Of a DNA stretch of 64,000 bases, positions 47,053 through 50,180 are shown one piece after another. The position numbers and the translations under genes are program-made. The notes beneath the pieces were generated by a model, which worked only from the letters and a program-made list of their open reading frames with translations, was not told the DNA's origin and did not search any database. Positions within the stretch are counted from its first letter, which is position 1. Every line of letters starts with the position of its first letter. Source of the DNA: Escherichia coli (GTDB lineage: Bacteria > Pseudomonadota > Gammaproteobacteria > Enterobacterales > Enterobacteriaceae); the NCBI RefSeq assembly GCF_024223415.1, contig NZ_CP100500.1; one strand, written 5' to 3'.

Positions 47053-48465
47053 TCAGGAATTACTCATTGCAGTAAATTGTTGGCTGAGATAGGTACTGGT
47101 GTTATTCAGTTTGCTCATCATGGTATCTAATTGCGTAAACTGTGCAGTGTAACGCGCCACGGTGTCATCAATGCTGGCACTGACGGATAGATACTGTTTG
47201 GTTAGTTTTTTCAGTGTGGCGTTAATACTGTCCTGTGCGCTATCAATAATGCCATCATCGGCAAGGTAACCTTTTACCTCGGTGGCAATTTTGGTGGTAA
47301 TTCCTGTTTCTTTACCATCGCCTACCAGCAATTCACGTACGGATGCTGTATTTTCATTCAGGACTTTTTTGAGTTTATCATCATCAATTTTCAGCTTACC
47401 CGTCGTGCCGTCCTGCTTAATCCCGATCTCGTTTAATGTTTTGAAGGCACCGTCGCTGGCACCGTTTGCAAATTGTGCGCGGATGCCGCTTTGAATTGTA
47501 CGTACAACGCTGTCTCCGAGAAGTGCACCATTATTTTTATCTTGTGCTTCAGCACCTGGGTCTACTTCTTTATATTTTGTCAGGGTGTTAAAGGTGTCAA
47601 TGAGGGAGTTATATGAATCCACCCAGCCTTTAATTGCTTCGGTTGCTTTATCGTTGCTTTTTGTCACAGTGACCCGGACGTCAGTGACTTTTTTGGTCAA
47701 ATCGAGAGTCACTCCCTGAGGAGCATCGGTAATTTTGTTACTTGAACGTTCAATATCGATACCGTTAACGTTTAGCTGTGCATTTTGCGCGTTAACCAGT
47801 TCCTTCATATTCCCGGTGTTGGTCTTGCTGTCATAAGCCAGCAGATCATTTAATTTACTGTCACCCTCAACAGATATGGTCATTTTATTGGCCAGACCTT
47901 CACTGGCGGTCAATACCAATTGATAGTCACCATCTTTGACTTTAACGATACTAGCGGAAATTCCACTATCGGCATCGTTAATGGTTTTGCTGATCTCATC
48001 CAATGACGTCTGATCTTTATTGAGCTTGATTTCCAGCGGCTCTTTACGGCCGTCTTGGGTAATTTTTATTGTGCGTGTATCTGATGACTCATCACCCAGT
48101 GCATCTTTTGTTGATGCAATGATTGTCGGGGAATCAGTTCGTAAAGATTGCGCCTGCGCCAGTTGGGTTACGCTGATGGTATAGATACCGGGGGCAGCAC
48201 CTGCTTCGGTGGAAACTTTAAGGTCTTCATTGCTACTGGTAACGGTAGTGCTTTTGAACAGATCGGCTTTATTTAACGCAGTATTTGCAGTCTGGAATTT
48301 TTCTAATGCACTTTTTAATGTGCCATAGGCTGTCAGACGTGCGGTGTTGTCACTCTGTTGCTGAGTAATTGGGTTTAAGCGTTTTTTTTCAGCGATGGTC
48401 AGGTTGTTTAGCAATGTATCCAGCGGCAGATTCGAACCAACGCCAAGAGATGTAAATGAAGCCAT
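47053..48465 (-). CDS. fliD: Flagellar filament cap protein FliD (470 aa; strain-variable allele)
   Basis: MASFTSLGVGSNLPLDTLLNNLTIAEKKRLNPITQQQSDNTARLTAYGTLKSALEKFQTAN...; SD AAGGAA upstream. Confidence 0.85.
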   Translation of the reverse strand: MASFTSLGVGSNLPLDTLLNNLTIAEKKRLNPITQQQSDNTARLTAYGTLKSALEKFQTANTALNKADLFKSTTVTSSNEDLKVSTEAGAAPGIYTISVTQLAQAQSLRTDSPTIIASTKDALGDESSDTRTIKITQDGRKEPLEIKLNKDQTSLDEISKTINDADSGISASIVKVKDGDYQLVLTASEGLANKMTISVEGDSKLNDLLAYDSKTNTGNMKELVNAQNAQLNVNGIDIERSSNKITDAPQGVTLDLTKKVTDVRVTVTKSNDKATEAIKGWVDSYNSLIDTFNTLTKYKEVDPGAEAQDKNNGALLGDSVVRTIQSGIRAQFANGASDGAFKTLNEIGIKQDGTTGKLKIDDDKLKKVLNENTASVRELLVGDGKETGITTKIATEVKGYLADDGIIDSAQDSINATLKKLTKQYLSVSASIDDTVARYTAQFTQLDTMMSKLNNTSTYLSQQFTAMSNS

Positions 48466-48503
48466 ACCTAATTCCTTTTGATTGCAAACAGTAGATAAGC
48501 GGG

Positions 48504-48530
48504 TTATCGGCAATTTGTGCGCAAAGTTTA
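48504..48530 (-). promoter_or_regulatory. Sigma-28 (FliA) class 3 promoter of fliD
   Basis: Minus strand reads TAAA-N15-GCCGATAA, matching the sigma-28 consensus. Confidence 0.7.
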
Positions 48531-48623
48531 ATAGTTGATTCACGAAGATGATGCGCAGAGTAGAGTTGTATATTACGGATATTTCAGCCGTTAAGAAAAA
48601 ACAGGAGAGAAACTAAAATTTTC

Positions 48624-48650
48624 TAAAGTTCGAAATTCAGGTGCCGATAC
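48624..48650 (+). promoter_or_regulatory. Sigma-28 (FliA) class 3 promoter of fliC
   Basis: TAAAGTTCGAAATTCAGGTGCCGATAC: TAAA-N15-GCCGATAC. Confidence 0.75.
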
Positions 48651-48719
48651 AAGGGGTACGGTGAGAAACCGTGGGCAACAGCCCAATAACATCAAGTTGT
48701 AATTGATAAGGAAAAGATC

Positions 48720-50180
48720 ATGGCACAAGTCATTAATACAAACAGCCTGTCGCTGTTGACCCAGAATAACCTGAACAAATCTCAGTCTTCTCTTGGCTCT
48801 GCTATTGAGCGTCTCTCTTCTGGCCTGCGTATTAACAGTGCTAAAGATGACGCAGCAGGTCAGGCGATTGCTAACCGTTTTACGGCAAATATTAAAGGTC
48901 TGACTCAGGCTTCCCGTAACGCGAATGATGGTATTTCTGTTGCGCAGACTACTGAAGGTGCGCTGAATGAAATTAACAACAACCTGCAGCGTGTACGTGA
49001 ACTGACTGTTCAGGCAACTAACGGTACTAACTCTGACAGCGATCTTTCTTCTATTCAGGCAGAAATTACTCAACGTCTGGAAGAAATTGACCGTGTATCT
49101 GAGCAAACTCAGTTTAACGGCGTGAAAGTCCTTGCCGAAAATAATGAAATGAAAATTCAGGTTGGTGCTAATGATGGGGAAACCATCACTATCAATCTGG
49201 CAAAAATTGATGCGAAAACTCTCGGCCTGGACGGCTTTAATATCGATGGCGCGCAGAAAGCAACTGGCAGTGACCTGATTTCTAAATTTAAAGCGACAGG
49301 TACTGATAATTATCAAATTAACGGTACTGATAACTATACTGTTAATGTAGATAGTGGAGCAGTTCAAAATGAGGATGGTGACGCAATTTTTGTTAGCGCT
49401 ACCGATGGTTCTCTGACTACTAAGAGTGATACAAAAGTCGGTGGTACAGGTATTGATGCGACTGGGCTTGCAAAAGCCGCAGTTTCTTTAGCTAAAGATG
49501 CCTCAATTAAATACCAAGGTATTACTTTCACCAACAAAGGCACTGGTGCATTTGATGGCAGTGGTAACGGCACTCTAACCGCTAATATTGATGGCAAAGA
49601 TGTAACCTTTACTATTGATGCGACAGGGAAGGACGCAACATTAAAAACGTCTGATCCTGTTTACAAAAATAGTGCAGGTCAGTTCACTACAACTAAGGTT
49701 GAAAACAAAGCCGCTACAGCATCGGATCTGGACTTAAATAACGCTAAAAAAGTGGGTAGTTCTTTAGTTGTAAATGGCGCTGATTATGAAGTTAGCGCTG
49801 ATGGTAAGACAGTAACTGGGCTTGGTAAAACTATGTATCTGAGCAAATCAGAAGGTGGTAGCCCGATTCTGGTAAAAGAAGATGCAGCAAAATCGTTGCA
49901 ATCTACTACCAACCCGCTCGAAACCATCGACAAGGCATTGGCTAAAGTTGACAATCTGCGTTCTGACCTCGGTGCAGTACAAAACCGTTTCGACTCTGCT
50001 ATCACCAACCTTGGCAACACCGTAAACAACCTGTCTTCTGCCCGTAGCCGTATCGAAGATGCTGACTACGCGACCGAAGTGTCTAACATGTCTCGTGCGC
50101 AGATCCTGCAACAAGCGGGTACCTCTGTTCTGGCGCAGGCTAACCAGACCACGCAGAACGTACTGTCTCTGCTGCGTTAA
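48720..50180 (+). CDS. fliC: Flagellin FliC (486 aa; non-K-12 H-antigen allele)
   Basis: [54 protein letters not shown]...[44 protein letters not shown]. Confidence 0.95.
   Translation: [486 protein letters not shown]

Follow-up and report, generated by a model that had tools for sequence, protein, structure and literature searches.

We analyzed a 64,000-nucleotide stretch of DNA from Escherichia coli (contig NZ_CP100500.1 of RefSeq assembly GCF_024223415.1; below, the window), in which the filament cap gene fliD and the flagellin gene fliC lie within a sharply bounded block of divergent sequence. Very likely, this block is a cassette by which fliD and fliC were replaced horizontally, and which is by now an old and established allele class of E. 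coli, here carrying an H27 flagellin. An original prediction, drawn from the letters of the sequence, had proposed two non-K-12 alleles brought into E. coli-like surroundings by horizontal replacement, and comparison with K-12 MG1655 agrees with it. Identity to K-12 amounts to 98.5% up to position 47014 and from position 50200 on, and falls to 43–86% per 100 bases in between, far beyond chance variation. The breakpoints (47014/47015 and 50199/50200) are the same whether the window is compared with K-12, which represents the most frequent fliD class of the species (class A), or with E. coli LR-60, which represents a second one (class B). The block has a G+C content of 43.7% compared with ~51% in its flanks. 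Its fliD alone likewise has 43.7%, close to the alleles of Citrobacter, Salmonella, and E. fergusonii (44–46%), whereas K-12 fliD has 52.2%.

The block is wider than the two open reading frames (ORFs), as it takes in the first eight codons of fliS on one side and 19 bases past the fliC stop codon on the other. On the left, the junction falls at fliS codon 8, K-12-like sequence starting at the patch GCCTATGCACA, and fliS is a chimera whose remainder is of the K-12 type. Four of the five FliS differences from K-12 lie in residues 3–8. On the right, the junction coincides with the fliC terminator hairpin, which is common to all allele classes and genera examined. The distance between the fliC stop codon and this hairpin is 19 bases in the window, likewise in E. 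fergusonii and Citrobacter, whereas K-12 and class B carry ~175 more bases including a repetitive extragenic palindromic (REP) sequence.

Both proteins encoded by the block point to a Salmonella-type lineage. FliD is 50% identical to its K-12 counterpart, 83% to that of a g,m-type S. enterica (locus L047), and 76% to that of S. diarizonae. Searched against solved cap structures, it scores 703 bits with the Salmonella-type entry 9gnz_R and 306 bits with the K-12-type entry 5h5v, compared with 434 and 734 bits for K-12 FliD and 735 and 334 bits for a Salmonella FliD. The last 90 residues of FliC share 71% identity with K-12, 85% with g,m-type S. enterica, and 89% with S. diarizonae; for residues 1–175 the corresponding values are 85%, 90%, and 85%. 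By these alignments, Salmonella is clearly nearer than K-12 at the C-terminus and just slightly nearer at the N-terminus; the predicted Salmonella-like termini are thus well founded at one end of the flagellin and weakly at the other. The predicted length of 486 aa and both quoted termini read exactly so in the ORF translation.

The cassette is widespread within the species. Among 5426 complete E. coli genomes, 862 (16%) harbor fliD of the window's class (class C), 838 of them at ≥99% identity. Class A, at least 95% identical to K-12 fliD, comprises 3189 genomes, and class B, 73% identical to K-12 fliD over the whole gene at the nucleotide level, ~1320 (about 24%). A division into two classes was rejected, because 3189 and 862 fall short of 5426 and a more sensitive search yielded the third. 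The class B example from LR-60 (locus L048, 4001–5416) combines K-12-like fliC ends with the same outer breakpoints, and class B FliD groups with Superficieibacter (84% bootstrap), not directly with K-12. The window-type 3′ end of fliC also occurs in exactly 862 genomes, a match between totals rather than genome by genome, and wherever a class C genome was sampled, the two block ends lie together at a single site; within the species, fliC and fliD classes are thus linked. Five further class C genomes, O111:H8 included, display an identical geometry. Across five different fliC centers, class C fliD is 99.4–99.9% and the fliD-fliC spacer 99.6–100% identical, compared with 96.5–100% for the adjacent fliT, and fliD diversity reaches ~2.3% in class A but remains ≤0.6% in class C. 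As class C fliD is more uniform than both fliT and class A fliD, the pattern fits one introduction followed by spread in the species. By these comparisons, the cassette would represent an old, established, and already known E. coli allele class rather than an event peculiar to this strain. Our literature searches found no published account of fliD allele classes in E. coli.

Two sequences recorded elsewhere touch on this class. One is a contig of 3.5 kb (JAIJJM010000335.1) assigned to a metagenome-assembled genome of ‘Collinsella sp.’; it encodes a FliD 100% identical to that of the window, next to a fliC that is of the E. coli type but of a different H type, and almost certainly it stems from E. 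coli and was misbinned. In addition, a 115-kb plasmid of E. coli BS74R-D (NZ_CP063337.1) carries a FliC/FljB-family flagellin gene, the 3′ end of which (26362–26573) is 90% identical to that of the window fliC. This plasmid may hold a second E. coli flagellin of the Salmonella/Citrobacter lineage.

Relatives of the window FliD outside E. coli were scanned for in one genome per species, and a protein database then gave further alleles. The species scan identified Citrobacter (77–86% identity), S. diarizonae (76%), Atlantibacter (70%), and Buttiauxella (63–67%), and the database added C. tructae (87%), Salmonella entries labeled Enteritidis or Adelaide (82–85%), and E. fergusonii (71–72%). The nearest outside allele, at 93%, is that of locus L045, whose contig flanks are 94–99% identical to C. 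portucalensis, indicating a C. freundii-complex organism as its source. As a qualification to the Salmonella-like character originally predicted, the closest outside relatives belong to the C. freundii complex (FliD 86–93%), with Salmonella at 76–85%. In neighbor-joining trees (23 taxa, 100–200 bootstraps), FliD of the window and of O111:H8 nests with the L045 Citrobacter allele, then with C. portucalensis, then with g,m-type Salmonella, each node at 100%, and FliD of K-12 and class B groups with Superficieibacter (100%). The combined flanking proteins AmyA and FliA, in contrast, recover the species groups, with E. coli and E. fergusonii united at 99%. FliS and FliT yield yet another grouping, as all four E. 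coli loci examined fall with Superficieibacter (100%) and E. fergusonii falls with Salmonella and Citrobacter. The history of fliC and fliD thus conflicts with that of their flanks, in the trees as well as at the breakpoints. The chaperone genes fliS and fliT of the window are 97–99% identical to K-12, their products sharing 65% (FliS) and 34% (FliT) identity with the Salmonella/Citrobacter versions, and an fliS-fliT pair of the E. fergusonii/Citrobacter type was found in none of the 5373 E. coli genomes with a match. The C-terminus of FliD binds FliT, and its motif ARY..QFTQLD..M..LN.TS.YL.QQF is kept in both lineages.

A recent transfer straight from Salmonella into this strain or strains closely related to it could account for a flagellin ending in ...NVLSLLR as in Salmonella, for Salmonella-type entries as best solved matches of both FliD and FliC, and for a flagellin center related to the g-complex. 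It is scarcely credible, however, given that the allele is common to 862 E. coli genomes of many sources at 99.4–99.9% identity, that Citrobacter alleles are nearer, and that fliB, the companion of Salmonella fliC, is absent. For the sampled Salmonella alleles, a recent donor is refuted by fliD itself, which shares 71–75% nucleotide identity with g,m-type Salmonella and S. diarizonae at a synonymous divergence (pS) of 0.74–0.77, that is, at saturated synonymous sites.

The polarity might also be reversed, such that the K-12-type cassette is foreign, derived from a Kluyvera- or Superficieibacter-like lineage, and the version shared by Escherichia, Salmonella, and Citrobacter was retained in, or returned to, the window. 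K-12-type FliD, FliS, FliT, and the FliC C-terminus do group with Superficieibacter although their flanks follow the species tree, and they are far from Salmonella, Citrobacter, and E. fergusonii. We consider this very improbable for the window, which itself has K-12-type fliS and fliT: the ancestral operon was not simply retained, and fliD-fliC would still have recombined into this backbone. Such a scenario relates to an earlier layer and does not contradict cassette replacement. FliD of the K-12 type is found in E. albertii (94–95% identity) and, at 82–87%, in Kluyvera and Pseudocitrobacter, which makes it the likely resident type of Escherichia.

Alternatively, the Escherichia ancestor might have had both cassettes, class C having descended vertically, maintained by diversifying or frequency-dependent selection, without any import. 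Such an ancient balanced polymorphism is improbable, albeit less so than the two preceding explanations. In its favor, pS between the window fliD and its nearest Citrobacter alleles (0.51–0.65) is about that of ordinary flanking genes between genera, and in E. fergusonii, likewise an Escherichia, fliC, fliD, fliS, and fliT are all of the Salmonella/Citrobacter lineage. Class C FliD is, however, 72% identical to E. fergusonii compared with 86–93% to Citrobacter, within which it is nested at 100% bootstrap; fliS-fliT is of the K-12 type in every E. coli genome that gave a match, E. albertii has the K-12 type, and the low diversity of class C fliD, below that of fliT and class A, is unexpected for an allele predating the species.

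Several points nevertheless weigh against an imported H27 cassette. The H27 label depends on the name of a single RefSeq record, neighbor-joining trees of 23 taxa fall short of a full likelihood analysis, and our sampling leaves out the cryptic Escherichia clades. Synonymous divergence of fliD is 0.51 to L045, slightly less than in the flanks (0.55–0.74), and 0.65 to C. portucalensis, near the 0.55–0.77 obtained for flanking genes between genera, so that no sampled species is a recent donor and the event is either old or involved an unsampled one; a very old polymorphism may still be compatible with these values. Furthermore, fliD has been exchanged among Salmonella, Citrobacter, and Escherichia, as illustrated by the pairs S. 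diarizonae/C. sedlakii and E. fergusonii/Franconibacter in the FliD tree, which renders the direction of any single transfer uncertain. Finally, the block is of mosaic composition, as a Citrobacter allele comes nearest to fliD and most of the spacer (82–88% at the nucleotide level), whereas the fliC ends have E. fergusonii and C. portucalensis as their nearest relatives (pS 0.29–0.34 for E. fergusonii). Whether the two genes had been acquired together was left undecided in the original prediction. Common outer breakpoints and equal counts (862 and 862) speak for joint acquisition, and the differing closest outside relatives of a mosaic speak against it; fliD and fliC would accordingly be co-inherited today within common outer boundaries, with deeper histories that appear not to be identical.

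Deep divergence of fliD is also seen within other groups. Two loci of the C. freundii complex (L045 and L004) share flanks at 94–99% identity and fliD at 80%, and two Salmonella subspecies loci (L047 and L017) share flanks at 95–99% and fliD at 73%, in both cases with near-saturated synonymous sites. Together with E. coli, these pairs indicate that no fewer than three genera have deeply diverged fliD allele classes in common.

Two readings based on E. fergusonii were considered and rejected. Recent exchange with this species at the 5′ end of fliC was hinted at by 94–96% identity around the promoter and start codon, but this stretch is near-invariant in all Salmonella/Citrobacter-type loci and the signal mostly reflects constraint, leaving a modest excess of similarity to E. 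fergusonii (pS 0.34 compared with 0.49–0.56). The complete operon of the Salmonella/Citrobacter type in E. fergusonii had likewise suggested that this type is ancestral to Escherichia; this is contradicted by the K-12-type FliD of E. albertii and by the position of E. fergusonii FliD next to Franconibacter, so that a separate replacement in E. fergusonii is more likely. The E. fergusonii locus in question (L044, CP058057.1) comprises fliC, fliD, fliS, and fliT of the Salmonella/Citrobacter type, its FliD joining Franconibacter at 100% bootstrap. Its FliA is 90% identical to that of E. coli, below Citrobacter FliA (93–94%), with AmyA and YedE at 97–98%; judging by these values, the replaced segment of E. 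fergusonii may reach into fliA.

With respect to the flagellin itself, the window fliC is 99.8–99.9% identical over its full length in 29 complete E. coli genomes, including the O128:H27 strain 90-9281 (NZ_CP024243.1). Compared with 90-9281, identity is 99.8% over 1461 bases of fliC, ~100% over the 486 aa of its product, 99.9% for fliD, and 99.8% for an 11.3-kb region containing the locus; the genes are arranged and spaced alike, and the differences, one or two bases, are of no substance. By sequence, fliC would thus belong to a known E. coli H type, H27, a label taken from the name of that one RefSeq record. The original prediction held that best hits to ordinary E. coli H alleles, equally similar across the gene, would speak against a foreign origin. 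Such hits are indeed obtained over the whole gene, yet the phylogeny of the block still conflicts with that of the flanks. Two major clusters of E. coli flagellins have been published (PMC7018530). Other class C H types, such as H8 in O111:H8, share the breakpoints of the window and, as noted above, nearly identical fliD and spacer sequences; their fliC genes are 85–99.8% identical at the 5′ ends and 90–100% at the 3′ ends, their flagellins are 487–524 aa long, and their centers are 28–74% identical to H27 at the protein level.

The center of the window flagellin has no match in the alignment to K-12. Among solved flagellins, its 221 residues have a single counterpart, 3v47_C, the S. Dublin (g,p) flagellin, to which they align along their entire length (E = 1.3e-20). 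Identity amounts to 38% with the g,m-type Salmonella FliC (over 246 aa), 42–47% with several Citrobacter flagellins, and 45% with that of E. fergusonii. Flagellins of the g-complex share most of their central region at high identity, a level that 38% over 246 aa does not reach. Of the predicted resemblance to the g-complex, a remote homology to 3v47_C therefore stands, and membership in that antigen group does not: by these alignments, the center would be a remote homolog with likeness at the level of the fold.

A similar coupling is known from Salmonella, where trees of fliB, fliC, and fliD agree mutually and those of fliA and fliS agree with the core genome instead (Liu et al. 2017, PMC5744181). 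The window resembles the Salmonella enterica fliB-fliC-fliD cluster in that fliC and fliD are co-inherited against the core, which fliS and fliA follow. It further resembles the monophasic/g-complex lineage of Salmonella in its FliD (83% to L047) and in a homologous, FliC-like_3rd flagellin center (38%). It differs in the absence of the fliB methylase gene, in a center too diverged for a g-complex antigen, and in a backbone, fliS and fliT included, from another lineage. As the original prediction stated, fliB is missing: the 164 bases from the fliC stop to the fliA start contain no ORF, whereas Salmonella locus L047 has fliB, and the window locus accordingly lacks the organization of a Salmonella-type fliC operon.

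The genes and signals of the cassette are intact (Table 1). Gene order, amyA-fliT-fliS-fliD/fliC-fliA-fliZ and then tcyJ, matches K-12 and E. coli in general, and fliC occupies the fliC locus between fliD and fliA rather than a secondary flagellin locus (flk, fll, flm). FliC is a complete flagellin of the FliC/FljB family, with helical end domains (Flagellin_N PF00669, 153 bits; Flagellin_C PF00700, 110 bits) around a variable center assigned to FliC-like_3rd (PF22370). FliD is a complete filament cap protein (FliD/HAP2) with both domains, FliD_N (PF02465) and FliD_C (PF07195), and its gene heads the fliDST operon, transcribed divergently from fliC across a spacer of 254 bases; the ORF delimited mechanically extends upstream to a GTG at 48543. 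The sigma-28 pattern upstream of fliD was matched once in the window, with 0.03 matches expected by chance. The promoter stretch of fliC is almost invariant across the loci of E. fergusonii, Citrobacter, and Salmonella. The cassette thus appears to be a normal flagellin-plus-cap module that would bring its own sigma-28 promoters. It shares with the K-12 fliC (H48)-fliD pair the locus, gene order, domain families, sigma-28 control, and terminator hairpin, and differs from it in FliD (50% identity), in the FliC C-terminus (71%), in an unrelated center, and in lacking the FliX-bearing 3′ untranslated region (UTR) of K-12.

Table 1 Coordinates of the fliD-fliC cassette, its genes and signals, and further features of the window
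Feature	Position	Strand	Description
fliS, whole gene	46628–47038		Chimeric
fliS, part outside the cassette	46628–47014		K-12 type
Left crossover patch	47004–47014	−	GCCTATGCACA, fliS codons 9–12; identical in K-12-type E. coli and Citrobacter locus L045
Divergent fliD-fliC cassette	47015–50199		3.2 kb, ~50–85% identical to K-12
Chimeric fliS, first eight codons	47015–47038	−	MYTASGSK, Citrobacter/Salmonella type; K-12 FliS starts MYAAKGTQ
fliD	47053–48465	−	Filament cap gene, 470 aa from ATG (MASFTS...); class C (Citrobacter/Salmonella type)
Sigma-28 (class 3) promoter-like site upstream of fliD	48504–48530	−	TAAACTTT-N11-GCCGATAA
Sigma-28 promoter-like site upstream of fliC	48624–48650	+	TAAAGTTC-N11-GCCGATAC; read from the sequence
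fliC	48720–50180	+	Flagellin, 486 aa, H27 allele; from the ORF list
Hypervariable central (antigenic) region of fliC	49245–49907	+	Residues 176–396; K-12 match absent
fliC intrinsic terminator	50197–50225	+	AAACCCCGCC-AAC-GGCGGGGTTT, then T run; strong hairpin at 50197–50219
IS1 element	56466–57233		768 bp, between yecF and uvrY; InsA and IS1 transposase ORFs
Target duplication of IS1	56457–56465 and 57234–57242		9 bp, GACCAATTA

In K-12, the small RNA FliX is cut from the fliC 3′UTR; it is ~195 bases long and contains a REP sequence (PMC10578931). Comparison of window positions 50181–50225 with positions 7913–8107 of locus L002 revealed no FliX counterpart beyond the terminator: FliX positions 172–194, which form the terminator, match 50200–50222, and the rest of FliX is missing from the locus. 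FliX is probably missing as well from the 862 E. coli genomes in which fliC ends like that of the window and is followed by the same 19-base spacer. Outside the flagellar genes, the IS1 element listed in Table 1 is an insertion relative to K-12.

Collectively, cassette replacement provides the most probable account of the locus. The cassette would consist of fliD, fliC, their common promoter region, and eight fliS codons, all of the lineage represented by Salmonella, Citrobacter, and E. fergusonii. The fliS and fliT of the Escherichia backbone around it come from another deep lineage, common to E. albertii, Kluyvera, Pseudocitrobacter, and Superficieibacter, and in most E. coli genomes fliD and fliC are of that lineage as well. 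Entry into E. coli most likely took place long ago by homologous recombination, with two short patches conserved across genera, fliS codons 9–12 and the fliC terminator, as putative anchors. The cassette would then have spread within the species by recombination, while divergence of the surface-exposed fliC center gave rise to a number of H types, H27 and H8 among them, and the role of the cassette would lie in antigenic variation of the filament by allelic replacement.

A further, tentative and rather doubtful suggestion is that the three fliD classes constitute cap-flagellin compatibility modules, in which the cap co-varies with the D0/D1 type of the flagellin because cap and flagellin core have to match each other. 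Class C would then pair a Salmonella-type cap and flagellin core with FliS and FliT chaperones of another lineage, the chimeric 5′ end of fliS might be adaptive, and ~16% of E. coli would do without the FliX arm. Linkage of fliC and fliD could, however, be explained equally well by their distance of ~255 bases alone.

For serotyping, the locus simply types the strain as H27, and the H type itself is known; what makes the locus modestly interesting are the three fliD classes, the chimeric start of fliS, the hybrid pairing of chaperones with their client, and the absence of FliX. Because the FliX sequence is absent from the cassette, findings on FliX in K-12 are not applicable to strains that carry it. 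Work on the structure and stoichiometry of the K-12 FliD cap is similarly unrepresentative of the species, as ~16% of the genomes encode a cap nearer to that of Salmonella and ~24% one of a third class; K-12-type FliD reportedly crystallizes as a hexamer (Song et al. 2017), compared with a pentameric cap in Salmonella. Pan-genome pipelines may divide fliD into several ‘genes’. The locus offers a clean example of flagellar antigen swapping, in which a 3.2-kb unit is exchanged between two very short cross-genus patches, the cap gene traveling with the flagellin gene and the chaperone genes staying with the host.

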